DNA of 29,803 nt, from positions 62,001 through 91,803 of the forward strand of contig JAXLQJ010000029.1 in NCBI GenBank assembly GCA_046331705.1. The letters run 5' to 3'. Shown one piece after another: positions 2,060 through 29,803 of this stretch. How positions within the stretch are numbered: the stretch's first letter is position 1; the number at the start of each line of letters is the position of its first letter. This stretch comes from a bacterium (GTDB lineage Bacteria; JADJOY01). Position numbers and translations under genes: made by a program. The notes under the pieces are model-generated. The model ran no database searches, was not told the DNA's origin, and saw nothing but the letters and a program-made list of their open reading frames with translations.

Positions 2060-4621
2060 TCATCGTTCGCAGCAATCGCCCGCCGCGGCGCGCGCGCGAG
2101 CCGCGCCAAGCGTCGATGGCGAGCGGTGCGCCGCGCCCACCTCGATCGCGTCGCGGCCGAATCGCAGCGTCACCGCGCCGTCCTCGCCCGTGTTCCACAC
2201 CTCGATGCCCAGCGCCGCGAACCGCGCAGCCACCGCGGGCGCGGGGTGCACCCGCGAGCCGCGCGCGGCGCTGACGATCGCGACGCGCGGCGCCACCGCG
2301 CGCAGCAGCGCGAAGCTCGACGAGGTGATCGAGCCGTGGTGCGGCACCTTCAACACCACGGCGCGCGCGTCGCGGCCGCCCGCGACGAGCAGCTCCTCGC
2401 CAGCGCGTTCCACGTCGCCGGCGAAGAGCGCGTGCTCGCCGGCGAGCTCCACGCGCAGCACCAGCGACGCGTCGTTGCTGGTGAGCGTGGCGTGCGCGGA
2501 CGGCGGATGCAGCACCTCGACGCGCACGCCGTCGTGGCGGAGCACCGCGCTTCCCGCGTCGAGCGCGACGATGGCCGTGCCGCCGCGGGCCGCGCGCGCG
2601 AGCTCGCTGGCGAGCCAGCTCGGGACCGGGACGGAGCGCGGCAGCCACAGCTCGCCGATCGGGTAGCGATCGAGCACCGCGCCAAGACCGCCGACGTGGT
2701 CGAGCTGAAGATGGCTCGCCACCAACACGTCGACGCGCTGGGTTCCCAGCGCAGCGAGCGCTCGAACCACCGCCGAGTCTCCCGAGCCCGCGCGCCCCTC
2801 GCGCGCGGGGCCCGCATCCACCAACCACGTGCGGCCACCGGGCAGCGCCACGATCGCCGCATCGCCGTGACCCACGGCGAGAAACACGATCGAGGGAGCG
2901 CGCCGCAGCAGCGCCAGCACACGTGGGCCCGCGACGGCGACGAGCGCCGCCACGAGCACCCCCAGCGCCGCGGCGCGACGGTGCCGCCGACGGCGCGCGC
3001 CGAGCGACGCCAGCGCCAGCGCCGATCCCGCCAGCGCGACCAGCTCGGGCGCCAGCGGCGTATGACCGTCGAACCCCTGCCAGCCGGCCACGCCTCGCAG
3101 GATCCCGAGCCCGGCGGCCACCGGTAGCTCGGCCACGCGAAAGGCCGCGGTCGCGAGGGACGAGGAAAACGGCGCGAGCGCCACCCCGAGCAAGCCCACC
3201 GGCACCGCGGCGGTCGCGAGCAGCGGCACGGCCAGCGGATTGGCGACCAGCCCGAGCGCCGTCCATCGACCGAACACTCCCACCGTCAGCGGGAACGTCG
3301 CCCAGGTCGCCACCACCGTCGCCAGCCACGTCTGGGCGGCGCCGCTCGCGATCCGCGACACCAGGTCCCGCCTCGGCGCGACGGGCGCCATCGTTCGCGA
3401 GATGCAGGCGCCCGCCAGCACCAGCCCCGCGGTGGCGAGGAACGAAAGGCGGAACGAGACCGACCAGAGCGATTCCGGGGCGAGCGCGGCGATGACGACG
3501 AAGCCGAGCGCCAGGCTCTGGAGCGCGGCATTGGGACGTCCCAGCCAGCTCGCCGCCAGCGCGCAGGCGCTCGCGATGGCCGAGCGCACCACCGGCGGCT
3601 CGCCACCGGCCAAGAACACGTACGCGATCGCCGCGCCCGCCGCCCCGAGCGCCGCCAGGCGCTGGCCACGCCCTTCCTCGGAGACGCGCCGCGACCAGCC
3701 GCAGAGCCAGCGAAGGGGCCCGTGAACCGCGAGCACCACGAGTGCCACGTTGAGACCGCTCACCGCCAGCACGTGGGCCGTGCCGGTGCGCACGAAGATC
3801 TCCTGGAGGTCGCCGGGCACACCGCCCGTGAGACCGATCAGCAGCGCTTCGAGCACGGCCGCGTGCTCGGCCGGCAGCGACGATTCGAGGAGCCGCGCCG
3901 TTCGCGCTCGCCAGCGCTGGATGCGGGTCGCGAAGCCCGGCGGCACGCCGCGCTCGGGGATGGGAACGATCCACGCCGCGTCGCGAACGCGCAGCGAGCC
4001 GGCGAAGCCCGCGAGGTGCAGCGCGCGAGCACGGCGTGGCTCTCCGGGATTGCCCGCGTCGCGAATCGGGCGCAGCGATCCGCGCAGCAGCACGCGCCGG
4101 AAATCGCGCAGGGCCGCGGGCGAGACCGGTGCCACCGCACGCAACCGCGCGACCATCGGATGCCAGCCCGTGACGTCGCGGATGGCTTCCGTGACCAGCA
4201 CGAACCGGGTCTCGTCGCTGGCACCGTCGGGCAACGTGGCGATGCGGCCCACGACCACCACGTCGCGATCGATCCACGCCGCGAGCTGGCGTTCGCGTTC
4301 CTCGTCGCGCGGGATCGCCGCGCCGCGCGTCGCGCCGAGGAGCGCGAACGCCGCCCACAGGATCCACGTCGCGCACCGCGGCTCGCCGCGCACGCGCACC
4401 AGGAGCGCCGCGAGGACGAACGCGGCGATCGCGATCGCGGCGGCCTCGGGATGGAAGCGCTCGCCGAGCGCGATTCCCGAGCCGAGCGCAACCGCCGCGA
4501 TCGGCAGCGCGCGTGCGTGCGCGGCCCGCGGCGCGGCTTCGCGCACGGCGGGATCGCCGTCGGCGACGGTGGTGGCCGCGAGCGGCGACGGCCGAGGTGA
4601 GCGCCCCATGCGCCGAGCCAC
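2060..4621 (-). CDS. comEC: ComEC/Rec2 DNA-uptake channel protein (OB-like region + Competence domain + metallo-beta-lactamase domain); start may be ATG 4609
   Basis: Competence-domain motif TGTAHVLAVSGLNV, PPVVRSAI, SVSFRLSFLAT, ANPLAVP; MBL region FLAVGHGDA, LVDAG, SHLQLDHVGG, SNDASLV, LFAGDVE, LKVPHHGSITSS; many hydrophobic helices. Confidence 0.93.
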   Translation of the reverse strand: MARRMGRSPRPSPLAATTVADGDPAVREAAPRAAHARALPIAAVALGSGIALGERFHPEAAAIAIAAFVLAALLVRVRGEPRCATWILWAAFALLGATRGAAIPRDEERERQLAAWIDRDVVVVGRIATLPDGASDETRFVLVTEAIRDVTGWHPMVARLRAVAPVSPAALRDFRRVLLRGSLRPIRDAGNPGEPRRARALHLAGFAGSLRVRDAAWIVPIPERGVPPGFATRIQRWRARTARLLESSLPAEHAAVLEALLIGLTGGVPGDLQEIFVRTGTAHVLAVSGLNVALVVLAVHGPLRWLCGWSRRVSEEGRGQRLAALGAAGAAIAYVFLAGGEPPVVRSAIASACALAASWLGRPNAALQSLALGFVVIAALAPESLWSVSFRLSFLATAGLVLAGACISRTMAPVAPRRDLVSRIASGAAQTWLATVVATWATFPLTVGVFGRWTALGLVANPLAVPLLATAAVPVGLLGVALAPFSSSLATAAFRVAELPVAAGLGILRGVAGWQGFDGHTPLAPELVALAGSALALASLGARRRRHRRAAALGVLVAALVAVAGPRVLALLRRAPSIVFLAVGHGDAAIVALPGGRTWLVDAGPAREGRAGSGDSAVVRALAALGTQRVDVLVASHLQLDHVGGLGAVLDRYPIGELWLPRSVPVPSWLASELARAARGGTAIVALDAGSAVLRHDGVRVEVLHPPSAHATLTSNDASLVLRVELAGEHALFAGDVERAGEELLVAGGRDARAVVLKVPHHGSITSSSFALLRAVAPRVAIVSAARGSRVHPAPAVAARFAALGIEVWNTGEDGAVTLRFGRDAIEVGAAHRSPSTLGAARARAAAGDCCER

Positions 4622-16018: not shown

Positions 16019-17446
16019 TCAGCGCGACGCCGCCTCCAGCTCGGCGATGACGCGCGCGAGCCAGGGCGTTCGTTCGCGGCGCTTGGTGCGTGCGTCCCGA
16101 ATCAACCGCAGGTTGCGAGCCGTGGTCTCGGCTTCCCACGGGGCGCGCAACGAAGCGAGTGCGTCGCCGAGGTGACGATCCGCGGCCGGTGCGTCGCTCG
16201 CGAGCACCGCGAGCTCGAGCATCGTGGCGTGGTCCCAGTAATCGGGTGAACCGCTCGCCAAGCGCTGCTCGGCGGAGAAGCGAACCACCGGCAGCAAGCG
16301 ATCGCGCTCGGCCTTGGCGGCATCGTCGCCCTTCATCTCGAGCAGCGTGACGGCGTTGATGCCGGGATACGCATCGCGCCAGTCGGCCTGAAAGCCGCGC
16401 CGGTAAGCGCCGATGGCACGGTCGAGGTGGGACGCCGCGAGCGCCTCGCCCTTCTTCCCTCTGGCGCACGCCTCCGTCCAAAGATCCTTGTGGATCCTGC
16501 CGATGAGCCCGCAGGTCTCGGAGCTGGGTCCTTGCTCGGACTCGACTTCCTTGAGCACGCTGAGCGCCCGCTCGCGGAGCGTTCGCGCGAGCACGCTCTC
16601 CGAATCCTCCTTGAACAAGCGTCCGGCTTCGCGATTGAGCGCGAGCCCGAGCTGCTCGCGCACCATCACCTGGCGCTGGAGAGCGACGGGCATGCGAGCG
16701 TAGAGATCGATCATCGCTCGCCAGGCGCTCAGCGCTCGGTACGAGAGCATGAGCTCCACGATCACGCCCGCCTCGTCGACGTCCAGCTCGTCGAGCTCCT
16801 TCTCGACGGCGCCGAGGGCTTCGAGTCCCGCTTCGCCGCGCCGCAAACGAGCCTCCGCCATGCGCTCTTGCAGCTCGCGATGCTCGGTGAGCTCGTCGCG
16901 AAACACGTCGGTCTTGAGCCGCGCGAGCTTGGGCGGCTTCCACTCGCCGATGAGCTGGAAGATCGGGCTGTCGACGTGGGCCTTGCTGAACGCGAGCTTT
17001 CGCAAGCGCTTCAGGCTCGCACCGAGCGATTCGCGCAGCGCCTTGGCCTCGCGTGCGGCGAACCGGTTGTTGGCTCCGAGGTCGTAGCCCACCGCCTCCA
17101 GGAACGAGACGTCGAACGGAATGTGGTGGTGCTTGGCGAAGATCGCCTGTGTCGTGCTGGGCCGCGCCGTGTGGCGTACCCCCAGCTCGTAAAACACGTT
17201 CGCGTTGGCGCTGGTCAGATCGGCCACCGCGTACTCGCACAGCATCAGCGCCGCGAACATCTTGCGGTGGATGATGCCGCCGCCGGCGGCGTGGTCCGAG
17301 CGCAGCGGGATCAGCCCCGCATCCTCGATGGCGGGAGCGATCGCTCGCCGGTACACCTCGTCGAAATCGATGTCGGCGCGACCCGTGGGATCGGGCTTCT
17401 TGCCGAACGGCATCAGCACGAAGCAGAGCGGTTTCGGTTGAGACAT
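16019..17446 (-). CDS. Deoxyribohydrolase-like (DRHyd/NDT fold) domain + TPR-S repeats (DUF4071 / MAP3K TRAF-binding family)
   Basis: CFVLMPFGKK...DFDEVY...IAPAI...RSD...IIH..MF..L..CEYAVADLTSANANVFYELGVRH; C-terminal LLSYR-like LMLSYRALSAW, EQLGLALNR, SSETCGLIGRIHKDLW, YRRGF..D..DAYPGINAVTLL, DYWDHATMLEL, WEAETTARNLRLI. ATG 17446 preceded by AAAGGA. Confidence 0.88.
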   Translation of the reverse strand: MSQPKPLCFVLMPFGKKPDPTGRADIDFDEVYRRAIAPAIEDAGLIPLRSDHAAGGGIIHRKMFAALMLCEYAVADLTSANANVFYELGVRHTARPSTTQAIFAKHHHIPFDVSFLEAVGYDLGANNRFAAREAKALRESLGASLKRLRKLAFSKAHVDSPIFQLIGEWKPPKLARLKTDVFRDELTEHRELQERMAEARLRRGEAGLEALGAVEKELDELDVDEAGVIVELMLSYRALSAWRAMIDLYARMPVALQRQVMVREQLGLALNREAGRLFKEDSESVLARTLRERALSVLKEVESEQGPSSETCGLIGRIHKDLWTEACARGKKGEALAASHLDRAIGAYRRGFQADWRDAYPGINAVTLLEMKGDDAAKAERDRLLPVVRFSAEQRLASGSPDYWDHATMLELAVLASDAPAADRHLGDALASLRAPWEAETTARNLRLIRDARTKRRERTPWLARVIAELEAASR

Positions 17447-17614
17447 GGAGCGTCCTTTCGGTGCGGTCCCGAGGCGACGACGAGCGCGCGAGCGCACTGC
17501 GCGGCCGAGCATGCGAGGCGTGCTTGCGAGTATCCAGCGCTGAGCTTGCTCGGAATCGAACGTGGCTTGGTATCGAATCCCTGACCGGTGCCATTCGTGA
17601 CTCGCGCCGATTGC

Positions 17615-20110
17615 CTAACGATCGCGTCTGCGAATGGCATAGCCGGCCGCAAGCAGCACGGCGGGCCAGTTCGCCACAGCTTGGCGATCTTGCTCCTTGA
17701 TGCGCTCCGGAACCCGATCCCACGGCACGAGGTATGGCGATTCCTTGCGCGCGACGTCGCGCTCCTCCGCTGGCTTCCAGCCCTGGAGCAGCCGTTCGGC
17801 ATTCCAGCGTCCGTGCTCACGCTCGGCGAGGCGCTCGAGCTCGCTCAGCTCGAACCGGATGGGCTGATCCATCGGCCCGCCGCGCTCCACCACGTACCCC
17901 TCGGCGCTGATCGCTCGCTCGATGAAGGCGACTTGCGCTCGATTCGAGCGCTTGAGCCCCTCATCGAGCTGGCTCCACAGAAGAAGCGATCGATCTTGGC
18001 CACCCAGACCGGTGAGTCGCGAGGCGCGGTAGGCATCGTGCACGTGCCGTCCGCCCACCTCGAGCGCGGCGTCGTCGAGCGCGGTCTTCGCGTCGCTCAA
18101 CAGCGCGTCAAAGGTGGCCTCGTCGTCGGGCACGGGCATCACATTGGCCACGTCCGACCAGTCGCGATCCTTGAGCGTGGCCTCTGCGGCATCCTTGCTA
18201 TTCGCGACGAGCGCCACGCAGGCCCCCAGCGCCGCGGCGATTCGATATTCGAGCGCCGAGAGGTCGCCGCCACCCACACCCACGAGCTTCACGTCCTGTG
18301 CCGCCACACCCGACGTGAGCAGATCATTCCAGTACCGCAGCACCTCGCGCACGCTGAAGTCGCGCGCGCCCGGGGTGCGCCGGATCTCGGAGTAGCGCAA
18401 ATCGAGGACCGCGCCGCGAGGCAGCCGCGCCGGGACGTAGCCGATCGTTCGGATTCGTCCGCGCGAGCGCGCGCCGATGCGCGCCGCCAGCTCGCAGATG
18501 CCGGTGCGTGTCCCTCCCGAGACGATCGTGCCGCGAAAGTCGCGCAGCGCTGCGCGCAGCCGCCGGTCCACCTGCGCGCGCCGGCGTCCCCAGCCGCGCG
18601 ATGTGTCGCCAGCCAAGATCAGCACGTTGCCGAAGGCGTCGTCCTGCGACTCACGCGAGCGCGCCTCCTCGACCCGTCGGGCCAGATCCAGCAGCGCCAC
18701 GACCTCGTCGAGACCGCAGATCGCAGAACGGGCACCGCTCAGGCGATGCAGCTCGCTCGCCTCCTGGCACAGCAGCCGCGCTCCTTCGCCGCGCCAGTCG
18801 CGGCGCGTCACCTCGAGCGCCTTGCAGTAGCTCTTCAGCGCCTCGTCCGGCGCGCCCGCGAAGAGTTGCAGCCTCCCAGCCGCGTAGAACGCGAGCGGCC
18901 AATCGAGGTGCGCATCCGCGCGATCGCGGCAGCGCTCGATCGCCTGACGGATCAGCGGTCGCGCCGATCCGAGCGCCGTGACCGCGCCGCCCGCGTGGCT
19001 CTCCACCTCGCAGCTCAGGAGCGCGCACAGGTGATACGGATTGGTGGGCGCTCGCTCGAACGCTCGCGCGCGATGGCTACGCTCGCGAGCAGCATCGACA
19101 CCCGCCCAGCTCTCGGCGACGAGCGCGAGCGCCTCGTCATCCGACGGGTCCGACTCGATCGCACGCGCGAGCGACTGCCGCGCCGCGGCCAACGCCGCGC
19201 GGTCGCTCGCCGGCGCCAGGCGCAACCGGGCCCGCCCCAGCTCCCGGTGCACGCGACCGTTTCGCGAGCTGACGAACGCACCGAGGGCGTCGATCACCTG
19301 TTTCCAGGCGCCAACCGCCGCCGCAGCCTGGGCGAGCTTGAGCGCCGCGCCTTCGTCCCGAGGCAGCGCCTCCGTGACGTGCGCCAGCGTTTCGAGCTCG
19401 TTCTCGGCCCGCTTTCGATCCACCCACACGCCGTGGTGATCCCGGTAGGCGTCCACCCCCTGCGCCAGCTCGGCGAACGCGCGGTCTCCTTCCTCGAGCA
19501 TCGCCGCCAAGCGCGCCGCCAACCGATGCCAGCGCGGCGGCACCTCGAAGCCCGGCTTGTAGAGCCGGTCGTGCGCGACGTCACCCCAGACGTGCTGCAG
19601 GAACGTCCGCACCTGGATCTCGAGCTTGAGCCCGTCCACCGCGCGGCGCGTCTTCGCAGGCAGGCGGCGCACGAAGGGCGAGCTCGGCCGCACGGCGATC
19701 CGATAGTGGACGCACGAATAGCCGAACTCCGACGTGCCGAGGCGTTCCTGCACGTTCTCGCGATCCGCGGGGCTCAGACCGAAATGCGCCTCGACCCACG
19801 CGCAGAGCCGCTCGACCTCCGGCACCGTGTGCGTGATCACCCGCCCCCCGCACAGGTCGAAGAGCTCGTTCACCGGGTTTGCCAGATCCGGGTATTTCCG
19901 CACCGCTTTCTCGGCGAAGCTCGCCACCGACTTGGCGCGCGCCTGCACCATCGCCAGCGGCACGCACTCCGCGACGCCGCGCCGAAGCGCCGCTTCCACG
20001 GCCGTCGCAAGCAGGCGGTAGCGCGGCTCGATCGCCTGGTACGCCCTCACCTGCGCCGCATGCCACTCCCGCTTCTCGGCGGCATCCCGCTCCCGCTCCT
20101 CGTCCGTCAC
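17615..20110 (-). CDS. Multidomain protein: RelA/SpoT-type alarmone synthetase + TPR-like repeats + SLOG domain + two RyR domains
   Basis: Synthetase: RAKSVASFAEKAVRK, DLCGGRVI, FGYSCVHY, EIQVRTFLQHVWGDVAHDRLYK. SLOG: VLILAG...TIVSGGTRTGICELA...TIGYVP...VGVGGGDLSALEYRIA. RyR1: RHVHDAY...LLWSQLDEGLKRSNR...EGY. RyR2: LAEREHGRWNAERLLQGW....RD..RKESPYLVPWDRVPERIKEQDR...GYAI. GTG 20110 preceded by GGAGGGGG. Confidence 0.88.
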   Translation of the reverse strand: MTDEERERDAAEKREWHAAQVRAYQAIEPRYRLLATAVEAALRRGVAECVPLAMVQARAKSVASFAEKAVRKYPDLANPVNELFDLCGGRVITHTVPEVERLCAWVEAHFGLSPADRENVQERLGTSEFGYSCVHYRIAVRPSSPFVRRLPAKTRRAVDGLKLEIQVRTFLQHVWGDVAHDRLYKPGFEVPPRWHRLAARLAAMLEEGDRAFAELAQGVDAYRDHHGVWVDRKRAENELETLAHVTEALPRDEGAALKLAQAAAAVGAWKQVIDALGAFVSSRNGRVHRELGRARLRLAPASDRAALAAARQSLARAIESDPSDDEALALVAESWAGVDAARERSHRARAFERAPTNPYHLCALLSCEVESHAGGAVTALGSARPLIRQAIERCRDRADAHLDWPLAFYAAGRLQLFAGAPDEALKSYCKALEVTRRDWRGEGARLLCQEASELHRLSGARSAICGLDEVVALLDLARRVEEARSRESQDDAFGNVLILAGDTSRGWGRRRAQVDRRLRAALRDFRGTIVSGGTRTGICELAARIGARSRGRIRTIGYVPARLPRGAVLDLRYSEIRRTPGARDFSVREVLRYWNDLLTSGVAAQDVKLVGVGGGDLSALEYRIAAALGACVALVANSKDAAEATLKDRDWSDVANVMPVPDDEATFDALLSDAKTALDDAALEVGGRHVHDAYRASRLTGLGGQDRSLLLWSQLDEGLKRSNRAQVAFIERAISAEGYVVERGGPMDQPIRFELSELERLAEREHGRWNAERLLQGWKPAEERDVARKESPYLVPWDRVPERIKEQDRQAVANWPAVLLAAGYAIRRRDR

Positions 20111-20231
20111 GGCCCCCTCCCGCAATCGGCTTTCCCCTTCGCACACCGCTGCACGCTATCATCTTCGAACCCGCGCGGCGTGAAGGCGCAGCAGCGCAAG
20201 CCTAGGTGAATTCGTCTAGCTTCCCTGGCCC

Positions 20232-20294
20232 ATGCCCTCGCCGACCTACGACGTCTTTCTCAGCTACGCGTCGGCGGATCTCCCGCTCGCCGAC
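20232..20294 (+). pseudogene. Truncated TIR gene (first beta strand and helix start only)
   Basis: MPSPTYDVFLSYASADLPLAD is a typical TIR N-terminus with high-GC codons; similarity stops abruptly at about 20294 where composition changes. Confidence 0.65.
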
Positions 20295-20714
20295 AACAAC
20301 ACCCACAGAGACATCCGGTGGAGCCGCCCACAGCGACAGATGCTCGCGTTCCGTCTCTATGGCCGCGGCCGCGCGCGCTCTCGCACCACCAGTGAATACT
20401 TGCTGGCTGCTCTCATGACCCCAACCTTTCAGGATCCGGCGCCGCCGAAGAACCCGAGCGACTCCAACGCCAGAGGTCTCCGCCGTCGCCTGCTCCACAG
20501 TCGAATCTCTCGACCTATCGGATCGAGTCTCGTCACCACGTCCAGCACCAGCTCACTGTCCAACACCACCTCGCGGATACCCTCCGAGTGATCCACGACG
20601 CATTCGAAAGCATGTACCACCCCAGTACACCACGCCCGATTCTTACGAAGGAGCCGAAGCCGCCGACGCTGGCCACCGAGACGTACGAGAGGATCGAACA
20701 CATACACGAAATAC

Positions 20715-21220
20715 TCACAACAGATCCGACCCGAGTTGCTTGATGCCGAGTGAAAATCGTTCGTTTTCGCGGTCGATACCGAGGACCACCGCCTCAACTA
20801 GCTGGCCCTCTCGGTAGATCTCGCTTGGGTGACCGAAGCACCTATTGTGCATAAGATCGGAGATGTGAACCAACCCGTCGATACCTTCATCCAGGCCAAT
20901 GAAAACGCCAAAGTCGGTGACCCTCTTGACCTTGCCGCGAATGACCTCGCCGATCGCATAAGCGCGCTTCGACGATTCCCACGGATTCGGCATCATCTGC
21001 TTGAGCCCCAGTGAAATCCGCTGGTTCGCCAAGTCAACGTCGAGGACCTGAGCTTCGATCTCTTGCCCGACCTCGACGAATGTCGACGGGTGCCTCACCT
21101 TCCTCGCCCACGACATATCAGACACGTGAATTAGCCCTTCGACGTCCTTCTCAAGCTGGACGAACGCGCCGTAGTCAGAGAGGCTGACCAGTACCTCTCA
21201 CTCGCGCACCTGGCGCCAAT
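20715..21220 (-). pseudogene. Two tandem S1 RNA-binding domains closely resembling internal domains (about D4-D5) of ribosomal protein S1; probably the C-terminus of the upstream frameshifted gene
   Basis: PGARVRGT/VSLSDYGAFVQLEKDVEGLIHVSDMSWARKVRHPS...VLDVDLANQRISLGLKQMMPNPW...GEVIRGKVKRVTDFGVFIGLDEGIDGLVHISDL...VEAVVLGIDRENERFSLGIKQL; one frameshift near 21190. Confidence 0.85.
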
Positions 21221-24002
21221 AACGGTTGAAGTAGCAAACGCAGCAGCAGTGCGTACAGCGCACCCCAGACATTCGAATCAGCGCTCCAATACGTCCAGTG
21301 AGTGCAGGAAGGACACATATCGCTCTACCCGTGGAACCTGACGATCCTCGACGGCGGCTTTCCGAGACCGAGGATCGATCGAGGGCTCTCATCCGACTTG
21401 CTCGCCGCTGCCTTCCAGGCTCGTCCGCCACTTCAACCAACGCGAACCGCCCCGCCGGCAGCCCCTCGCTCGCAAGCCCAGGCAAAGACAACCGCATGTC
21501 CAAGGCGAGCCCATCTAGGTGGCGAGGCTCTTCGAGATTGATACGAGCAAGCTCGCCTGATGCCGCGCGACTCGGACTCGGCCATGCGGCATAGATACGC
21601 CGCAGAAAGCGCGACCTGCTCGAATCTCACAAATCCCGACTCAATCAACGCGCCAACGTCACGCAGCTCGCTCTGCCGCACATTCTCAGCATCTACCACG
21701 TCGAGCATCAGCTCGTCGTACGCCCGCCTCTCGAACTCGCGGCTCATGTACCACCCGCCACCGTCGCCTGTATCGATCGCGCATGCTTCCATCGCCACAT
21801 CCACTCGATTTCGCCCCATACGAGCAGGGCATCCTCCCGTAGGCCCTGGATTGGCCACTGCCAATCGCCGGCTACGCTTTTCGTCTGCGCCGACGATTCG
21901 ACCCGCCGGCGCAATAGCGTCTGGGGAATCCAGCCGGTGCAGTGATCGTACTTCGGAAGCTCCTGCAACGCGCTTATGCCCAAGCCGTGACGCGTCACGG
22001 CGACTTGGCCGGACACATGCAATCCGCGCCAGTGGCCCGATGAACCAAGTTGCAAGTCCCGCGAGCAGCAGCGCAAATCCAAACCGGCTCGTCGCTGCGC
22101 CCGGATTGATAGCCAACACAACGCAAGACCGCACAGAGCCATCGTCGCCGATACGATTCCAAGCCCCCACGAGATGGGCGCTATTCCATACGTAGCGAGC
22201 TTTGAGGTGCCGACCGCGCTGTTGCGTCTCAATCTGGGCGGAACTTGCGGATGCGGGTTGTCGCGCACGCCCCCTGATGAACCACTCCGGAACCGGCCTG
22301 ATCGACCCACACTGGGCGGCGAACCCCTCGCCCGTCAACGCGTCGCTTAGCAATGAGCCTGCATTTCTTTTGCAGTCTCCTTCTTTTTCATCACGTTTGA
22401 TCGGCTTGCGCAAACGAGAATCCCCTTGCAAGCTTACAGCACCTGACGGCAACGATTGCGCGTAAAGCAATCGTGATGGGCGCGCAGGCTCTTCGAAACT
22501 CGGACATGGATCAAGACACAGAGTGCGAACAGGCCAGACTGGGCGTCGACTCTCGACCCCGAGTACGTAAGATGTAAGACATTGAAGAAGTCCGAGTTGA
22601 CCTTGAGCAGACTGGCGCCCAACTTTTACAATGTCCACAAGACCGGCAGCCTCACCGAAAAAAGACCCGCTTTCAATTGCCAGAAGACGTTCTTCGTCAT
22701 TACATCGCGTCTATCGTCCGCGCTCGATCAAGATTCACGGGCACGACCCACTGAATTGCTTCTCGCAGCAATTGTTCGCTCTCGACAATCTTGACCACTC
22801 TTCGCTTCGCCTCGTCGAAAAGGCGCTCTTGCTGTTGTTGCATCATCTGACCCAGCGCCGAGAAGGCGGGATCCGCCTGCAGCCTACGAAACGTGCGGGG
22901 GTCGCATCGAAACGCTTGACCGACCCACTCGGCTGCGCGTCGCTCATCCCCGGCGCGAGCGTAAGCGCACGCAAGCTCAACCGCGGTGCCGGCGAAGCCG
23001 CCGCCGTGTTCGCGCGCTTGCGAAGCATAGCGATTCGCCGCTTCGTGCTGTCCGCACTTCACCGCGACTTGCGCCGCCAATACGTAAGCTCCTGCTATCT
23101 GAAGCCAACCACCCCCGTCGTGCTCCAGAATCTGATGCATCTCGCAATTGAAATCATCGCTTCTTCTAATTCGGACTTTCGGCGACTGCACGAGAGCAGC
23201 CGCGCAAGCCAGTATGTTGCAGTGCGTCCAGTCGTATTTGATTTGAATTGCGAAGGTGCTTCAGCGCCATTCCGAGCTTGTCCATTGCGAGAGCGCGGCT
23301 TGCTTCGTCGAGTTCATCCTGAATCGCGTGACGCGACGTATCACGCGGGCCTGGCGGCGAGCCGGAAGGATTCGACAGCGAAAGAGTCGCTCAAAGTATC
23401 CTGAGTCAGCAACCATGAGCCCTTCATTCACGAGCTCATCTGGACGATCTCGGCCTATCGCTTCACTGGTTGGTGTGGCCTGCAATCTACAATGGAGCGA
23501 AGTGCGACTTTGTTTTTCATTGAGCACGCTGACCACAGAGTTTACGATTCTAACTACGGTTCGGAGGAGTGGCTCGGAACGATCAATCATTCCAACAGTC
23601 CAGTCCGACTGTATTACAGACTTCCACGCCTCAAGCGCGCGCGCGGCGGCTGAATCTTGCTTCGACGGAGGCTCAAGATCGACAACAAAATAGGGCAGCA
23701 CGGCTGTCCGCGGCCGATTTCTCATCGCTGCTTCATATTCAATTTGAATGGATGTCTGTGGCCGATTCGTATTCGGTCGGTGCCCCTGACTCCGATCGAC
23801 GAGGAGGACAAGGACATCCGATCGCTCGATGGCGCGCCTACTCACATCCAGGGGCGTGGCGGCTCTGGCCGAGGTGATCGTCGAGGTCGACGACATGAAT
23901 GGCTGGGCTTTGCCACTCCCGGAGCTGACGCGCCAGCTCACGCCTAAGCTCTCGGAACTCGTGAAACGTCGATGCGATGAAGACCTGACGCTTGTTAATC
24001 AC
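21220..24002 (-). pseudogene. Frameshifted DUF4062 (TIR/NDT-like fold) + TPR protein with possible TM segments
   Basis: GTG 24002 after GGAGG: (M)INKRQVFIASTFHEFRELRRELARQL.../ATPLDVSRRAIERSDVLVLLVDRSQGHRP...TSIQIEYEAAMR...VLPYF (DUF4062 pattern VFISST..L...R...SD....YG....S...EY..A). TPR end-cap ELACAYARAGDERRAAEWVGQAFRCDP...ADPAFSAL (23191-22700). Hydrophobic stretch FGFALLLAGLATWFIG near 22050. Continuity across frames is inferred. Confidence 0.6.
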
Positions 24003-24153: not shown

Positions 24154-25341
24154 TCATGCGGCGCGCGCGGGCTCGGTGGGATTGCCGAGAAGCGCGATCA
24201 GGCGCTCTTCCAGATCGTCGTCGCAGATGAGGTGGTTCACGAGGCGGTAGTCGAGCAGGACGCGGCGCACGGTCTCGGCCTTGCTCGCTCCGATGGCGAT
24301 GACGACCACGCCGGGGAGCTTCGGGTTCTTGCGCGCGGCCTCGGCGCATTGCTGAAGCTGCCGCAGCTGGATTCCGGTCCAACGCGACGAGACCTGCGCG
24401 AGCTCCTCCACGTCGGTCGCCGAGAGCGTGGGCTTGGGGATGAGCGCGCCGCCGATGTCCGCCCCCACGAGCTGGCTGAGGCGCTTCCCATCCACTCCCG
24501 CCATGTCGCGGAACTGCTTCCCGTAGCCGAGGCCGAACGCCACGCCGGGGAGGCTCACGCTCACCAGCACGGTATCCATTCGGTGGATCAAGCCCCGCTG
24601 CGACGGCCGCTCGGCGCCACCGCCGAACACGTCCTGGTAGGACGGGATGCTTCGCACGTACTTCCACACGGCCTCGGCGCCATCGGGACCGAGCTTGGAA
24701 GGCACGAACGCGGGGATGCCCATGAGCGAGCGCGCCGCGCGGCGATCGTTGTTCCAGATCTCCGAGAGCTGGCTCGCGAGCATCGACGCGGAAACCTTGG
24801 GTGGCTGAATTCCGACCTGCTCGCCGCAGATCGGGATGAAGGTCACCGGGCGCCGCTCGCCCGCGCGACGCGACACGGCGAGGTCCACGCCCTGGACGCT
24901 GGCGGCGACGCTCTTGCCCCAACACACCCCGCACACCCGCGCGCGGTTGAGGATCTTCAGCAGCTCGGCACCCGCCGCCGTTCCGAAGCGCTTCAGGCGC
25001 TCGCGGTAGGCGTCCTTCGAATCGTCGCGCGAGCCGCTCGGGAACACCGCGACCGTCGGCAGCGGCAGGTTCGGCACCCGCGTCCGCTGGATCGTCTCGA
25101 GCGCCTCCCGGAGCTGCTGACGACCCGCGCGGGTGCGCACCGCGTGCAGCGTCGCGTCGTCGAGATCACCGGACACCCAGAAGGCCTCGCGCCGCAGATG
25201 GCCGGCGCGCTCCGCCGCGGCCACGAGCCGCGACACCGTGGGCTGCGAGCAATCGAGCCGCCGCGCGATCGCCTCCTGCGTCCAGCCTTCACCCGTCAGA
25301 TACGCCGCCGCCAACGCATCGATCGAGGGCTGCTTACTCAT
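24154..25341 (-). CDS. SorC/DeoR(B. subtilis)/LsrR-family transcriptional regulator (HTH + sugar-phosphate-binding domain)
   Basis: AYLTGEGWTQEAIARRLDCSQPTVSRLVAAAERAG HTH; GVCWGKSV, FIPICG, ADIGG, VVVIAIGASKAE, VNHLICD match the Sugar-bind domain (GxxWGxT, GDI.G, V..A.G..KA, N.LITD). GGGAG RBS. Confidence 0.85.
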   Translation of the reverse strand: MSKQPSIDALAAAYLTGEGWTQEAIARRLDCSQPTVSRLVAAAERAGHLRREAFWVSGDLDDATLHAVRTRAGRQQLREALETIQRTRVPNLPLPTVAVFPSGSRDDSKDAYRERLKRFGTAAGAELLKILNRARVCGVCWGKSVAASVQGVDLAVSRRAGERRPVTFIPICGEQVGIQPPKVSASMLASQLSEIWNNDRRAARSLMGIPAFVPSKLGPDGAEAVWKYVRSIPSYQDVFGGGAERPSQRGLIHRMDTVLVSVSLPGVAFGLGYGKQFRDMAGVDGKRLSQLVGADIGGALIPKPTLSATDVEELAQVSSRWTGIQLRQLQQCAEAARKNPKLPGVVVIAIGASKAETVRRVLLDYRLVNHLICDDDLEERLIALLGNPTEPARAA

Positions 25342-25363
25342 GTCGTGTCTCCCGCCGGATATT

Positions 25364-25385
25364 CATTCATCGATCGCCGTGAATG
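25364..25385. promoter_or_regulatory. Inverted repeat, candidate operator between the divergent regulators
   Basis: CATTCA-N10-TGAATG in an AT-richer patch 23 nt upstream of the SorC-family start. Confidence 0.35.
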
Positions 25386-25546
25386 CGAATTCAGACTACT
25401 GCATGACAATTGCGACACGCCACCGTGACGGCCTATTGTCGCGCTCGGGGACGAGAACCGCACCGCACCGCTGCACTCGACCGCGCTGCCCGGGCTCCCG
25501 TGCTCGGCGGCGCGTTCGAGTGAACCGGCGCACAAGGGGGATTGCG

Positions 25547-25999
25547 ATGAGTCGACAGCCATACACCTGGGACCCGACGACGAACGCGCTCGCCATGGCG
25601 CTCTCCGGCTTCATGCGGCATTCGCGCAAGCAGCTCTCGCTCAGCCAGGAGGCGCTGGCCGATCGGGTCGGTTGCGATCGCGTGACCGTGCCGCGCATCG
25701 AGCAGGGACGCCAGCTTCCGTCGTTTCAGACGCTCGCGCAGATCCTGCGGGCGCTCGACGTGCGGCCGGCGCTCGATGGCTCGCCACTTCCGTTCACGCG
25801 CCTTCCGGACTTCCGGGACCGCGCCGACCTCATCGAGGTGGTGGACGTCTTGAGCCGGGTGCAGCCGAGCACCGTGGCCACGATCCTCGACGTGCTGCGC
25901 GCCCATCATGCCCTCGTCGCGGCCAACGCGGAGCGTTCCGGGGATCCCGAGATCGTCTTCATCCGCCCAAAGCCCACCGGGTTCGTCACCGCGCGCTGA
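25547..25999 (+). CDS. XRE-family helix-turn-helix regulator
   Basis: MRHSRKQLSLSQEALADRVGCDRVTVPRIEQGRQLPSFQTLAQILRALDV is an HTH_3 pattern; AAGGGGG RBS before ATG 25547. Confidence 0.85.
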   Translation: MSRQPYTWDPTTNALAMALSGFMRHSRKQLSLSQEALADRVGCDRVTVPRIEQGRQLPSFQTLAQILRALDVRPALDGSPLPFTRLPDFRDRADLIEVVDVLSRVQPSTVATILDVLRAHHALVAANAERSGDPEIVFIRPKPTGFVTAR

Positions 26000-26009
26000 G
26001 GACGAACCC

Positions 26010-26858
26010 TCATCCACCCGATAGCACTCCCACGGCTCGCCGGGAACGCCCGGCGAGCCACCTCCGGATCCACCAGCGATACGCCGACCAGAAGGTGGGA
26101 AACAACCGACGAAGGCCCGCGCGGCAGGCTCGGACGACGGGACGCCACGACACGCCGACGATCGCCCACGCGACCACCAGATCGAGAACCGGCCGCACCG
26201 AGTCCGAGAGCCCAGGCACGAGCCCGACGAGCAGATCCACCAGCATAAGCACGTAGATGGGACCCAGAAACACGAGCTCGAGGAAGCTCCGATACGAGAC
26301 CGTGAGTCCAGGACCTCCCGTCAACCCCAGTCCGGTCGTGTAGCTGAGCGCACCCGGCCCAACCCAGTTGCTGAAGAGCGGCGCGCCGAGCCGAAAGACG
26401 AGGTAGGGCGTGGACGCGAGCAGCAAGAACCCGAGCCCTCCGACGGCACCCGTCGCGTGCCAGAGCACGCGACGCCGTGACCAGCCGCGGCTTCGCAGTC
26501 GCAGCCACGGCGTGAAGACACAGCCCCACCACACCAGCACGGCGTAGAGCGCCAGCTCGCCGACGATCTTCCGCGGCACGCGTCGCAGCTCCTCGGCCAT
26601 GGCGTCGCGAACCGCGGGCTCCACCTCGTCGCGGACCGGCCGATACGAGGGTCCGAGGTTGCGTGTCTTCGCGAGCACGCAGCCGTGGTGGCCACAGAGG
26701 AAGCCGTATTTCCAGTGCGCGGTCGTGCGGATCTCGTCGGCCCACATCTCGTAGGCGTACGGCTCGATGGTCTGCACCTTCATCCGCGCCGCGCACGATT
26801 CCATTCCGCCGATCGCGATCGCCCACGCCACGATCGTCCGGCGGCGCTTGCGGCTCAT
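26010..26858 (-). CDS. Hypothetical multi-pass membrane protein
   Basis: ATG 2 nt after the PafA-WD40 stop; several hydrophobic segments (LALYAVLVWWGCVF, AVGGLGFLLLASTPYLVF, LVFLGPIYVLMLVDLLVGLV, VLDLVVAWAIVGV) and an Arg-rich tail; no family recognised. Confidence 0.6.
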   Translation of the reverse strand: MSRKRRRTIVAWAIAIGGMESCAARMKVQTIEPYAYEMWADEIRTTAHWKYGFLCGHHGCVLAKTRNLGPSYRPVRDEVEPAVRDAMAEELRRVPRKIVGELALYAVLVWWGCVFTPWLRLRSRGWSRRRVLWHATGAVGGLGFLLLASTPYLVFRLGAPLFSNWVGPGALSYTTGLGLTGGPGLTVSYRSFLELVFLGPIYVLMLVDLLVGLVPGLSDSVRPVLDLVVAWAIVGVSWRPVVRACRAGLRRLFPTFWSAYRWWIRRWLAGRSRRAVGVLSGG

Positions 26859-26860
26859 CT

Positions 26861-29377
26861 TCACGGCGATCCGAGCTCGCTCGGGTCGTAGGCCCACACG
26901 GCGACCCCCTTGCGGCTGCCGTCGCGAGTGGCGAGGAGCGGGCTCCGGGGGTGAAAGGCGAGCCCGCGAGGAAGCGGATCGTCCGTTCCTTCGTCGATCC
27001 GCACCATCGCTTCCCAACTGTCCGTCCGATACAGCACCACACCGCCGCGGATGACCTTCGCGGCGACGATCCGTTCGTCGTGGGAGACCGCGAGATCGAC
27101 CGCGTCGCCGGCACCACAGCCGAGCATCACGCGCTCGTCGCGGGCCTCGACGTCGAGCACGCGCAGGGTGCTCCGTCCCCCGCTCACGACGATCGCGCCC
27201 TTGCGTTGCAGCCAGCCGAGTACCTTCACCGGGGCCCCGGTCGTCGCGAAGCGGCGGATCGCGGCTTCGCCCGTCGACGCGCGCGCCGCCTCGATCACGA
27301 TGGCGCGATCGTCGCCGCCGGTCGCCAGCCAGGTGCCGTCGCGACTCCACGCGAGCGACAACACGGCACCCCGGTGGAGCTCGAGCGTGACGCGTTCCTC
27401 GCCGGACTCGCGCTGCGTACGAAGCTCCAGGTGGCCGTTGCGCAGTCCGAGCGCGAGGGTCCTTCCGTCCGGCGACCACGCGGCGCACAGCACCACGTCC
27501 GCCGTGCTCGCGAGCCAGGCCGGCGGCAACCCCGCCTCCGGCTGCCAGAGTCGGAGCGAGCCGTCCGCCGTGCTCACCACGACTTGGCGCCCGTCGGGCG
27601 ACCACGCCACCGCGCGGACGGCGCCACCCGCTGACACGTGCACCGCGGTGCAGCTCCGCCGGGCCGGATCCCAGATCCGAACCGAGCCGTCGCGCGACGC
27701 CGAGAGGATCCGCGATCCCGTGGGTGACCACGCGATCGCCGAGATCAGCTCGGGATGCGCCCCCAGCGTGGTCTCGATCCTGAGCCCGAGCGGCACCGGC
27801 GCAGCCCGTGACTCGGGCGCGGGGGTCCGGGGGAGAACGATCGTGCGCCACGTCGCCGCCTCGGCGAAGGGATCGCTCAGGTCGAGGTACGAGCACGAAT
27901 CCTTCCACACGCGCTGCCAGTCGCACGACGCCGCCGTGCCTGAGTTAGCGAGGCGCTCGACCCATTCCCCACGCAGTCGCGCGCGGCCGTGGCGCGGCGG
28001 CTCGCGCACGGCGCGCGCCAGCGCCTCCGCGGGCACGATGCGGTGATCGAGGACGCCAGCGGCATCGAGCGCCGCAAAGATCCCGCCCTCGCCGACCTCC
28101 GCGAACTTGGTGTCGAGCTCGAATAGCTCGTCGCGCAGCCGCAGAAACGCCGGGAACGAATCGATGCTCGCCCCGCGCGCGGCCAGCGTTCGCTCACCGT
28201 TCCGCCGCCAGTCACGCAACGACTCCGTGGAATGCTCGAACGGATCGACCCGACTCGCCGGCGAGATTCCGCTCGCGAGACGAGCCCGTGCAAACCCGGC
28301 GGCGACCTCGTTCCAGATCGGCAGCACGTCGCGCGCGAATCCAGCGCTGCGCGCCCGCTCTTGGTAGAGCCGGTCCTTGATCGCCCAGTCGAGCGTCGTC
28401 GCGGCGCTGAGCGGCGAGTCCGAGAGCCGCTCGAGCTGCTGCCGCCAGTGACGCAGCACCTCGTCCGCCCACGCGGGGAGCAGCCCCCGTCGCGCGGCGG
28501 ATTCCGCCGTCTCCAGGTAATGCCGCTGGATCTCGAGCGCCGTGAGCCTCCGCCCGTCCACGAGGTCGACGCGCGTCGTGAGCGAGGGATCGCACGCGAT
28601 GGCGTGCATCGCGCGCAGCGGTGTCGCGAGCGCGACCGCCGATCCCGGGCTGGAGCCGGCCTCGACCATGGCAAGCACCAGCGCCGTCGTGCCGATCTTC
28701 AGATACGCGGCGACGTGCGATTGGAGCGATTCGCCGCAGATCAAGTGCAGCCGATGGAAACCGGGTGCCGCGAGGGTTTCGTCCTTGGTGTGCAGGATGC
28801 CGCGGTTGCCGGTCGAGTCGCAGGAGGTCTCGTTGACCAGGAACGAGGCCCGCGGTGAGAGCATGAAGACGATTCCTGGCGAGGACGGCTCGAATCCGCC
28901 GCTGCCGGAGAACACGATCCGGCTCACGAGATGCGGGAGGAGCTGCTCCGGCAGCGCCCGCGGATGGACCCGATGCAAGTAAGACTCGTGGCAACCCCAC
29001 GAGGCCCCGCTGCCGCTGTAGTCGACGTTGCCGCGGAAGAGCCGCACGCTCGCGAGCGCCGGGACCTGCGCGCGGATTCGTCGCAGCAGGCGCTCGAGCA
29101 CGAGGTCGCCGGCGCCCACGAATTGCACGCATTCGGCCGGGTCCGAGCACTCGGGTGTGGCGAACTCGGGATGAAAGCCGTGATCCACGTAGAACCGCGC
29201 ACCCGAGCTCAGCCACACACCGCCGGCGTCCGCCGAGCCCGGCAACGTCGGCAGCTCTGCGGACGCCGCGCGTGTGAGCAGCTCCACGATCTGCCGACGC
29301 GAGACCGGCGATCCCTGCGCCGGCATGGGGGCGAGCGCGTACTCGGTCTCGATCCCCATCAGCGAGGCGTGGGTCAT
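26861..29377 (-). CDS. PafA/Dop-family (Pup-ligase-like carboxylate-amine ligase) domain fused to a 7-blade WD40 propeller
   Basis: MGIETEY, WLSSGARFYVDHGFHPEFATPEC, LFRGNVD..G..SWGCHESYL, LVSRIVFSGSG, LSPRA, RGILHTKDE, HRLHLICGESL, LKIGTTALVLAMVEAG, LTALEIQRHYLE, LDWAIK, PPRHGRARLRGEWV, CDW. Then seven WD40-type blades (AWSPTG..IWD, AWSPDG..LWQ, AWSPDG, AWSRDG, GWLQRK, AVSHDE, AFHPRS..VW) in one open frame. Start overlaps the upstream stop (ATGA). Confidence 0.9.
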   Translation of the reverse strand: MTHASLMGIETEYALAPMPAQGSPVSRRQIVELLTRAASAELPTLPGSADAGGVWLSSGARFYVDHGFHPEFATPECSDPAECVQFVGAGDLVLERLLRRIRAQVPALASVRLFRGNVDYSGSGASWGCHESYLHRVHPRALPEQLLPHLVSRIVFSGSGGFEPSSPGIVFMLSPRASFLVNETSCDSTGNRGILHTKDETLAAPGFHRLHLICGESLQSHVAAYLKIGTTALVLAMVEAGSSPGSAVALATPLRAMHAIACDPSLTTRVDLVDGRRLTALEIQRHYLETAESAARRGLLPAWADEVLRHWRQQLERLSDSPLSAATTLDWAIKDRLYQERARSAGFARDVLPIWNEVAAGFARARLASGISPASRVDPFEHSTESLRDWRRNGERTLAARGASIDSFPAFLRLRDELFELDTKFAEVGEGGIFAALDAAGVLDHRIVPAEALARAVREPPRHGRARLRGEWVERLANSGTAASCDWQRVWKDSCSYLDLSDPFAEAATWRTIVLPRTPAPESRAAPVPLGLRIETTLGAHPELISAIAWSPTGSRILSASRDGSVRIWDPARRSCTAVHVSAGGAVRAVAWSPDGRQVVVSTADGSLRLWQPEAGLPPAWLASTADVVLCAAWSPDGRTLALGLRNGHLELRTQRESGEERVTLELHRGAVLSLAWSRDGTWLATGGDDRAIVIEAARASTGEAAIRRFATTGAPVKVLGWLQRKGAIVVSGGRSTLRVLDVEARDERVMLGCGAGDAVDLAVSHDERIVAAKVIRGGVVLYRTDSWEAMVRIDEGTDDPLPRGLAFHPRSPLLATRDGSRKGVAVWAYDPSELGSP

Positions 29378-29803
29378 GGAGCACCGTCGCCGGCGGCGAC
29401 GCTCGACGAAGCGGGCTGGTCGATCTGCCAGATGCGGATGCCGCGCCCCTCGGCGCCACGAATCGCGAATCGATCGAGCACGGGGTGGAACGCGAGGCCC
29501 CGTGGCCACGCGTCGTCCGTGCGCTCGTGAATGATGACCTGCACGGACAATCGCTCGGCATCGAGAAGCTGCACGACACCGAGCGCGGTCTTGTACGCGA
29601 GCCAGCGGCCGTCGGCGCTCACCTGCACGGTGAACACGTCGACGTCCTCACGCCCGGCCACCCGCGGCTCCCCCGCGAAATCGTGGACGAGCACGCGGCC
29701 ATCGCCGCCGCTCGACGCGAGCCGGCGACCGTCCGGATACCACGCCACCTCGCGAACGACGTCGCCGCCATGGGGCCGGATGCGCAGCTCCGCCGCGCGC
29801 GCC
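29374..29803 (-). CDS. WD40-repeat protein, C-terminal part (starts outside the window)
   Basis: Frame open to the window edge: HGGDVVREVAWYPDGRRLASSGGDGRVLVHD, VFTVQVSADGRWLAY, RGLAFHP...IRIWQID. Confidence 0.85.
   Translation of the reverse strand, partial: ARAAELRIRPHGGDVVREVAWYPDGRRLASSGGDGRVLVHDFAGEPRVAGREDVDVFTVQVSADGRWLAYKTALGVVQLLDAERLSVQVIIHERTDDAWPRGLAFHPVLDRFAIRGAEGRGIRIWQIDQPASSSVAAGDGAP

Follow-up and report, generated by a model that had tools for sequence, protein, structure and literature searches.

A PafA-like ligase with its own WD40 propeller at the end of a conserved bacterial operon that holds a ubiquitin-like cascade and a Pup-like tag gene

The DNA described here, called the window throughout, is the final 29.8 kb (29,803 nucleotides, positions 62,001 to 91,803 of the forward strand) of contig JAXLQJ010000029.1 (C29) in assembly GCA_046331705.1, from a bacterium of the GTDB lineage JADJOY01. 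It contains a real gene in which a Pup-ligase-type domain is joined to its own seven-bladed WD40 propeller. The gene is called paralogue B, and its upstream neighbour, a second gene of the same kind, paralogue A. What is new here is a PafA-type ligase with a built-in propeller, present in duplicate, at the end of a conserved operon with two tags and without a proteasome. Paralogue B is composed of the following parts (AF2, AlphaFold2).

26861..29377, minus strand: paralogue B, PafA-like ligase-WD40 fusion, the whole open reading frame (ORF), 838 amino acids (aa) plus stop in a single uninterrupted frame
27833..29377, minus strand: Pup_ligase (glutamine-synthetase-fold) catalytic domain with its helical C-terminal part, residues 1-515 (Pfam, AF2, conserved residues)
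27797..27832, minus strand: flexible linker of 12 residues, 516-527 (AF2 pLDDT below 50)
26864..27796, minus strand: seven-bladed WD40 beta-propeller, residues 528-838 (Pfam WD40, AF2 strands)

The frame ends at 26861 and encodes 838 aa if it starts with an ATG at 29377 and 882 aa if it starts with a GTG further upstream, at 29509. The ATG overlaps the stop codon of paralogue A as ATGA and homologues begin at the same point, so that it is the likely start; the GTG is the less likely one. The catalytic domain is matched by Pfam Pup_ligase (PF03136) with an E-value of 4e-90 and 303 bits (cut-off 25), the best stretch being residues 6-347, followed by a second stretch. Residues from about 530 to 838 match Pfam WD40 (PF00400; E 3e-30, 103.8 bits, cut-off 27), and whole-propeller Pfam models cover residues 541-817. 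The AF2 model, computed from a 30-row alignment, has a mean pLDDT of 85.6 and a pTM of 0.69. Residues 1-515 are confident, mostly above 90, and 27 beta-strands lie between 532 and 830, a number compatible with seven four-stranded blades. The closest sequence match of the propeller in the PDB is the bacterial WD40 protein 2ymu. A first-pass annotation of this DNA had described a full PafA/Dop domain (about 29377-27830) and seven WD40 blades (about 27780-26870) in one frame; the ORF, the Pfam matches and the AF2 model bear this out, and the domain boundaries agree.

Sequence near-identical to window positions 27300-28400 is found in contigs from 20 public runs (13 studies), mainly of activated sludge, wastewater or digesters, and the organism or the gene is therefore common in such habitats. 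The domain junction (27797-27832) is bridged without a gap by contigs from activated-sludge and digester runs of three other studies, namely X4 record 10 (spanning 27357-27991, 1 differing letter), X1 record 2 (27760-29047, 9 differing letters) and X7 record 30 (27765-28809, 1 differing letter). Within the ORF, the only indels listed compensate each other (29048/29051) and come from a single X7 contig with a depth of 3.6. This comparison is one of assembled contigs, not raw reads, and 38 substitutions are unlisted, which leaves room for a rare stop-bearing variant. At position 29399, within the final codons of paralogue A and shortly before the ATGA junction, a 2-nt insertion (CT) occurs in low-depth contigs from two runs, X4 and X7; it may be a strain variant or an assembly error.

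The operon extends beyond the window. The end of C29 is identical to the start of the 8.6-kb contig C106 over 55 bases and an ORF runs across the join; the two protein pieces of paralogue A, one from each contig, overlap by 18 aa. The far end of C106 overlaps the end of a third contig, C102, by 21 exact bases, and the HPN..C motif of an E2 gene spans this join. Contigs of other runs also reach past the end of the window. Because the ends overlap exactly and the ORFs continue, both joins are probable, and paralogue B would end an operon of about 12 genes split over three contigs. The remainder of the operon occupies L006 (contig C106) 1-8589 and L099 (contig C102) 252-4684, one break cutting the E2 gene and the other the WD40 repeats of paralogue A. 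Its genes are the following.

Divergent gene: sigma-54 activator, flanking the operon
Gene 1: Prok-RING_1 protein (27.3 bits, just below the cut-off)
Gene 2: ThiF-type E1 (E 1.3e-28)
Gene 3: E2, by homology to the gene of a related locus, L061 (UQ_con, E 9.4e-5), with an HPN..C motif; split by the contig break
Gene 4: protein X, about 318 aa, no Pfam match; its L061 homologue matches DUF6301 weakly
Gene 5: beta-grasp ubiquitin-like protein (Ubl), 95 aa, ending in DAG plus a tail
Gene 6: JAB-like protein (Prok-JAB, E 8.8e-5) with an HSH..D motif
Gene 7: L006 4184-5917, minus strand, Mpa-like AAA ATPase with OB domains of the proteasomal-ATPase type (AAA, E 7.9e-32; Prot_ATP_ID_OB_C, E 8.8e-7)
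Gene 8: lig1, Dop-like Pup_ligase paralogue, 589 aa, between the ATPase and the tag gene
Gene 9: L006 2187-2384, Pup-like tag, 66 aa, ending in GGQ, with a good ribosome-binding site
Gene 10: L006 1-2229 plus window 29374..29802, minus strand, paralogue A, PafA-like-WD40 fusion; the window piece encodes the last 142 aa (WD40 blades)
Gene 11: paralogue B, the fusion studied, last gene of the operon

The closest NCBIfam model of the ATPase is that of the Pup-linked AAA proteins (TIGR03689, pup_AAA; 246 bits, below the cut-off of 505). Lig1 scores higher against Dop (267) than against PafA (212). In its N-terminal part (L006 3621-4160, minus strand) it has a Gly/Tyr-rich low-complexity insert at the position of the Dop loop, and its first strand reads GxDxE instead of GxExE, a change that its L061 homologue shares. 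The L006 part of paralogue A matches Pup_ligase (E 1.8e-78) as well as WD40, and the piece in the window matches Pfam WD40. Identity between the two paralogues is 43% for the ligase domain and drops to 33-34% for the WD40 domain. Together with lig1 they are the only Pup_ligase genes in this 8.2-Mb genome (95.7% complete). The fusion had been placed in an accessory island. It is not a solitary enzyme there but the last gene of a conserved operon that includes a full Ubl cascade, a JAB protein, an ATPase, a Dop-like enzyme, a tag and a second fusion; the accessory status is supported, a Pup_ligase gene being found in none of five other genomes of the same family (74-100% complete).

One further ORF (26010..26798, minus strand, 262 aa) begins 62 nt past the stop codon of the fusion. 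Its hydrophobic stretches suggest a membrane protein, whose belonging to the system is uncertain. It was not counted in, as it has no Pfam or PADLOC match and no homologue in the 75 related loci described below, and is linked to the operon by strand and spacing only.

The operon is not peculiar to this genome. A profile built from the ligase together with its 25 best homologues, run against contigs of one genome per species, found 234 matching stretches, from which 75 loci were kept. They belong to Acidobacteriota, Binatia, Gemmatimonadota, Planctomycetota, Verrucomicrobia and others. Searches with the operon proteins (tblastn) detect the Ubl in 55 of the 75 loci, the JAB protein in 57, the ATPase in 59 and the ligases in all, and the gene order (Ubl, JAB, AAA, ligases) is constant, with misses mostly on short contigs. 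The core operon thus recurs in most of these loci and across several phyla. In L061, ORF clustering and Pfam place RING, E1, E2 and X upstream. An AAA-like NTPase follows the operon in 28 of the 75 loci, and a sigma-54 activator is present in 17.

Proteasome genes were looked for and not found with the operon. Five queries of the PrcA/B type had no match in the 75 loci; this genome has a single PF00227 match, and therefore no alpha/beta proteasome pair, and five host genomes have zero or one match each. The Mpa-like ATPase does not end in GQYL, as does its proteasome-linked relative in locus L096. Most of 55 ATPase homologues (L021-L094) have a motif of the RYL type 2-5 residues before the C-terminus. 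Outside Actinobacteria, Pup/UBact-proteasome operons such as L095 and L096 share with the present one the order of ATPase, Dop-like enzyme, small tag and PafA-like enzyme. They differ in that they carry two proteasome subunit genes (PrcB, PrcA), and the ATPase of L096 ends in GQYL, whereas here proteasome genes are lacking, the ATPase has another end, and RING, E1, E2, Ubl and JAB genes are added. The genes of these Pup/UBact-proteasome operons are Mpa, Dop, tag, PrcB, PrcA and PafA.

The Ubl family has the C-terminal motif [IV]-x-A-G in all 52 aligned sequences. Fourteen of them stop right at AG and 38 continue with tails of 1-13 residues; the Ubl of this genome carries AGA. A fixed AG followed by short variable tails is characteristic of tags whose C-terminus is trimmed ahead of conjugation. 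The model of the Ubl (pLDDT 85.1) matches ubiquitin, the bacterial Ubl 8tyx, Caldiarchaeum ubiquitin 6fno (TMq 0.70, root-mean-square deviation 2.2), NEDD8 and SUMO, with 157 structure matches at E <= 1e-3. In the same 52 sequences, an N-terminal motif of the DVSGQK type (D14 and Q18 invariant) and a REGRHL motif (R62 and R65 invariant) are found, surfaces that may contact a specific partner or be sites of modification. With its ThiF-type E1, E2 (HPN..C motif), Prok-RING_1, Ubl and JAB proteins, the upstream half of the operon resembles Bil, Bub, CBASS Cap2/Cap3 and the Caldiarchaeum RING-E1-E2-Ub-Rpn11 operon. The Ubl described here differs from those of the bacterial E1-E2-Ubl-JAB systems in ending with AG, not GG. 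The literature searched contains no paper that ties an E1-E2-Ubl-JAB cascade or a ThiF/JAMM/RING operon to genes of the Pup-ligase family. Burroughs, Iyer and Aravind may have described the RING-E1-E2-Ub-JAB part in 2011.

The GhExE motif of the first strand and the further acidic, histidine and arginine active-site residues of the Pup_ligase superfamily, as set out in PMC2588565, are all present in paralogue B. Eighteen positions are invariant in 26 homologues including paralogue B (G8, E10, E12, Y13, R61, Y63, D65, H69, E71, N117, D119, H130, R153, R192, H196, E200, R209 and H211), and the active-site motifs of this type of ligase, termed lig2, are invariant again in alignments of 30 and 46 rows.

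With PafA (PDB 4b0t; 4bjr with Pup) the fusion shares the Pfam family, the GxExEY, RxYxD and HPE motifs and the lack of a Dop-loop insert. The spacing between GIETEY and GARFY is short and colinear with PafA, residues 6-339 aligning with residues 12-356 of 4b0t, whereas Dop and lig1 have a long insert at this place. Dop (PDB 4b0r, 9cku) has the same fold and active-site residues, but its structures align to paralogue B only from residue 49-51, at Dop residue 79-80 or so, and the fusion has no counterpart of the first 79 or so residues of Dop, the Dop-loop region. Opposite YVDHGFHPE of the fusion Dop has a one-residue gap, so that the catalytic DxxHPE stretch is one residue longer in the fusion. 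In a further alignment, DxGxHPE and the short spacing are common to the lig2 type and the near-canonical PafA of L096 (543 bits, cut-off 551), and the long insert with DxxHxE is common to the lig1 type and Dop. The features of Dop are thus located in lig1, which adjoins the tag gene, and paralogue B is accordingly called a ligase.

In a FastTree phylogeny of 138 rows, which is flagged for long branches and includes only five proteasome-linked references, PafA among them, lig1 (57 rows) and lig2 (76 rows, with paralogues A and B) each form a group with a support of 100. Judged from its sequence, the fusion probably works like PafA, yet it is not a PafA orthologue and belongs to a clade of its own with 75 other lig2 rows. 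It differs from PafA further in its propeller, in a tag that is outside every Pfam family (its own copy and that of L061), in the lack of detected 20S genes and in the linked Ubl cascade. In common with PafA, its operon also encodes an Mpa-like ATPase and a tag with the ending G-[QE].

The Pfam Pup model has no match anywhere in this genome, the 66-aa tag included. The tag gene is detected with a profile from related loci, as a single match in the genome at E 2e-17, the next one being at 0.54. A small ORF of this kind lies between the two ligases in 66 of the 75 loci; of the 64 loci with both types of ligase, 62 have it. Every one of the 66 copies ends in Q or E (GGQ in 41, GGE in 17, other endings in 8). 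When ligase residues 1-520 and the tag were co-folded, ipSAE was 0.88, 0.88 and 0.87, and the best of three controls scored 0.00. These values pass a mark reached by 58 of the 80 solved complexes and by 2 of the 110 mismatched pairs used for comparison; the counts apply here only roughly, because the co-fold was run on alignments made for this study. At least 93% of the contacts are common to the runs, and the partner has a pLDDT of at least 70. In the predicted complex, tag residues 56-66 contact ligase residues 12, 14, 65-67, 69 and 119-123, which are the active-site motifs, and the helical part of the tag lies on ligase helices 413-444. The predicted mode of binding thus places the tail of the tag in the active site, as in PafA. 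Because a PafA-Pup complex (4bjr) has been solved, this result may reflect only the likeness to it. On the predicted complex, an ATP-dependent joining of the C-terminal Glu of the tag to lysine is a putative activity of the fusion.

The propeller belongs to a wider range of C-terminal extensions. Among the lig2 genes of the loci, 29 of 77 have at least 115 residues beyond the core, and Pfam finds TPR in six of these tails and WD40 in one (L046, from a metagenome-assembled genome (MAG) of Binatia); the rest, many of about 200 aa, have no match. The best 150 of 1.84 billion cluster representatives include 46 lig2 proteins of at least 687 aa, with TPR_12 in 18 and WD40 in one. PF03136 and PF00400 occur together in none of 119 other proteins among the matches listed. 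The WD40 tail is thus rare and the TPR tail common on the same clade of ligases. The first-pass annotation had presented the architecture as without a characterised precedent. This stands for the WD40 version, which is rare and uncharacterised in the literature searched, but not for repeat-domain tails as such, since TPR tails are common.

Four ligase-WD40 proteins were found (A, B, L046 and P0130), two of them in this genome. Their propellers align colinearly, and in both pairs (A/B and L046/P0130) the propeller is less conserved than the ligase part; L046 and P0130 are 55% identical overall, 47% in the WD40 part and 62% in the ligase part. In the tree B pairs with L046 at a support of 10 and A is basal in the clade, and the colinear propellers fit a single origin as well as separate ones. 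The TPR-tailed members, named 'proteasome accessory factor PafA2 family' or 'TPR repeat protein' in MAG annotations, belong to the same catalytic clade (36-49% identity in the ligase part). They likewise have a C-terminal repeat domain and are often found in or beside the same operon; their tail is TPR or about 200 aa with no Pfam match, not a beta-propeller. The literature searched holds no study of them and no paper on a fusion of Pup ligase with WD40 or TPR. The conserved core, the variable and fast-diverging repeat tails and the extra paralogues suggest that the tails are recognition modules.

These findings lead to a reading to which we give about an even chance, namely that the fusion is an active PafA-type ligase that joins the 66-aa Pup-like tag to lysines of target proteins, with the WD40 propeller as a built-in device for their recognition or recruitment. 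The Dop-like lig1 would deamidate the C-terminal Gln of the tag (GGQ) to Glu. The ligase would then phosphorylate the side chain of this Glu with ATP and transfer the tag to a lysine of the protein held by the propeller. The Mpa-like AAA ATPase would recognise the tag and unfold or extract the tagged protein without a 20S proteasome. The two diverged paralogues, A and B, would provide two target specificities, and the Ubl branch (RING, E1, E2, Ubl, JAB) might take part in the same process. The domain architecture, the conserved catalytic motifs, the content and conservation of the operon and the fold of the Ubl are established here; what we infer is that the ligase is active, which protein serves as its tag, that the propeller is a receptor, and what happens to tagged proteins. 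In eukaryotes the WD40 propeller of an E3 is an adaptor on a subunit of its own, and tagging runs through a cascade of thioesters. The likeness of the fusion to the receptors Fbw7/Cdc4, Cdc20 and the DCAFs, which also couple a seven-bladed propeller to tagging, is an analogy of logic only, as here the propeller is joined to an acyl-phosphate-forming ligase.

Several observations weigh against this reading, some of them against the ligase activity and others against the receptor. Paralogue B scores 236.4 bits with the NCBIfam model of PafA (TIGR03686, equivalog cut-off 551.3) and 256.3 bits with that of Dop (TIGR03688, equivalog cut-off 492.3), so that it falls short of both and is overall slightly nearer to Dop. 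Its matches in the PDB show the same tendency, with 206 and 191 bits for Dop and 147 and 145 for PafA. The phylogeny, which the first-pass annotation had proposed as a check, gives a clean lig2 clade, but this clade is apart from PafA, and all five proteasome-linked references are on the lig1 side of the tree. These scores and the tree, together with the identical active-site residues of PafA and Dop noted in PMC7947786, would also be expected if the fusion were a Dop-like hydrolase (a deamidase or a remover of the tag) or a dead tag-binding paralogue, whose propeller would bring tagged proteins for removal or reading. We consider this distinctly improbable. The fusion has no Dop-loop insert, its DxGxHPE spacing is PafA-like, and a separate paralogue with the insert and spacing of Dop already adjoins the tag gene; without a ligase function of lig2 the operon would have no ligase at all, and all catalytic motifs are invariant. 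The preference for a ligase over Dop, expressed when the gene was first annotated, thus holds for the missing insert, the DxGxHPE spacing and the separate Dop-like paralogue with its GGQ tag gene upstream, but not to the point of passing the equivalog cut-off of PafA.

The receptor role is weakened by the fact that most lig2 genes of the operon have no repeat tail, from which it follows that the core function does not require a receptor domain. The WD40-fused ligase L046 adjoins no lig1, Ubl, JAB, AAA or Pup-like gene in its Binatia MAG, and a different contig of that genome (L100/L101, G046 contig C351) has two Pup_ligase genes with very high scores at a distance of 1.7 kb, so that the WD40 forms may use another tag. 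A canonical Dop-tag-proteasome-PafA block would suit this distance of 1.7 kb, and a lig1-type gene was not seen there. The AF2 model leaves the placement of the propeller with respect to the active site undefined, because the linker (residues 516-527) has a pLDDT below 50. The main rival of the receptor role is that the propeller is an assembly scaffold, which docks the ligase onto the ATPase, Ubl-modified proteins, X, the RING/E2 or a cell structure, the targets being chosen elsewhere. WD40 and TPR domains are general platforms for protein-protein contacts, and the operon offers many possible partners. Both lig2 copies of this genome carry a propeller, with no plain copy beside them, and plain lig2 genes do the core job elsewhere. 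On the other side, the tails vary (TPR, WD40, about 200 aa with no Pfam match) and diverge faster than the core, unlike what a conserved internal partner would impose, and the WD40 form of the L046 genome is located away from the operon. We regard the scaffold as rather unlikely.

The first-pass annotation had also suggested an anti-phage or other conflict system in which the propeller recognises foreign proteins. Its accessory distribution would suit such a role, and so would the protection against phage that other bacterial Ubl systems give; moreover, the window holds a RelA_SpoT-RyR gene (with a weak PDC-S33 match) and a MAP3K_TRAF_bd/TPR-S gene about 7 kb away. PADLOC-DB 2.0, however, has no match for the ligases, the Ubl or X and only generic ones for the AAA, E1 and JAB proteins, and for protein P0001 the WD40 domain brought up a repeat model and nothing else. 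Beside the operon no genes of phages or mobile elements were identified, and the flanking sigma-54 activator, here and at 17 of the 75 loci, suggests a regulated physiology. Defence is therefore an improbable role.

Returning to the ligase with a propeller for its targets, a more far-reaching version can be formulated, which we hold to be quite unlikely. The WD40 fusions, and elsewhere the TPR-tailed enzymes, would be the first Pup-type ligases with a dedicated, genetically swappable receptor, in a two-tag pathway in which Ubl and the Pup-like tag are placed on the same targets and feed a proteasome-free, Mpa-like unfoldase, as a bacterial counterpart of ubiquitin-Cdc48 extraction; the two propellers would stand for two classes of targets. 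The propeller might then read Ubl-marked proteins, and the JAB protein would reverse the mark set by RING, E1, E2 and Ubl.

We know of no adaptor or receptor for PafA. If the fusion is a PafA-type ligase with its own receptor, a modular receptor can direct Pup-type tagging, as happens in the ubiquitin ligases, and a receptor-bearing propeller fusion would give a direct experimental handle on the choice of targets. The operon joins a complete Ubl cascade, a Pup-like cascade and an unfoldase, without a proteasome and in several phyla, and so raises the question of the role of two tags in one pathway. PMC10465538 and a 2026 bioRxiv preprint treat the substrate choice of PafA as an open question. 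Pup and PafA are sporadic outside Actinobacteria, according to the available sections of Iyer et al. 2008 (PMC2588565), which describe ligases with a four-transmembrane insert and make no mention of WD40. In Hecht et al. 2020 (PMC7947786), single-copy planctomycete relatives are used only as an outgroup. PafA serves in proximity labelling (PUP-IT), and natural variants that bear a receptor could be useful labelling tools.

The rest of the window contains genes of other kinds. Just downstream of the operon are two divergent regulators, 24154-25341 (minus strand) and 25133-25999 (plus strand), which are a protein with a helix-turn-helix (HTH) and a sugar-binding domain (SorC-like) and an XRE-type HTH protein. 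Positions 20001-24000 have a G+C content of 56-62%, compared with about 70% elsewhere, and the ORFs 21433-22638, 22631-23404 and 23261-23941 of this stretch have no Pfam match; lying between the regulators and the RelA/TPR-S pair, it may be foreign DNA. That pair occupies 16019-20146 on the minus strand and consists of a RelA_SpoT-like nucleotide synthetase of 843 aa, which has a RyR domain at its C-terminus, and an adjacent 497-aa MAP3K_TRAF_bd/TPR-S protein. It looks like a conflict or signalling system, and no link to the operon was seen. At 2060-4621, minus strand, there is an ordinary ComEC gene (Competence, DUF4131 and metallo-beta-lactamase domains), because of which the window seems to begin, at its low coordinates, in core genome.

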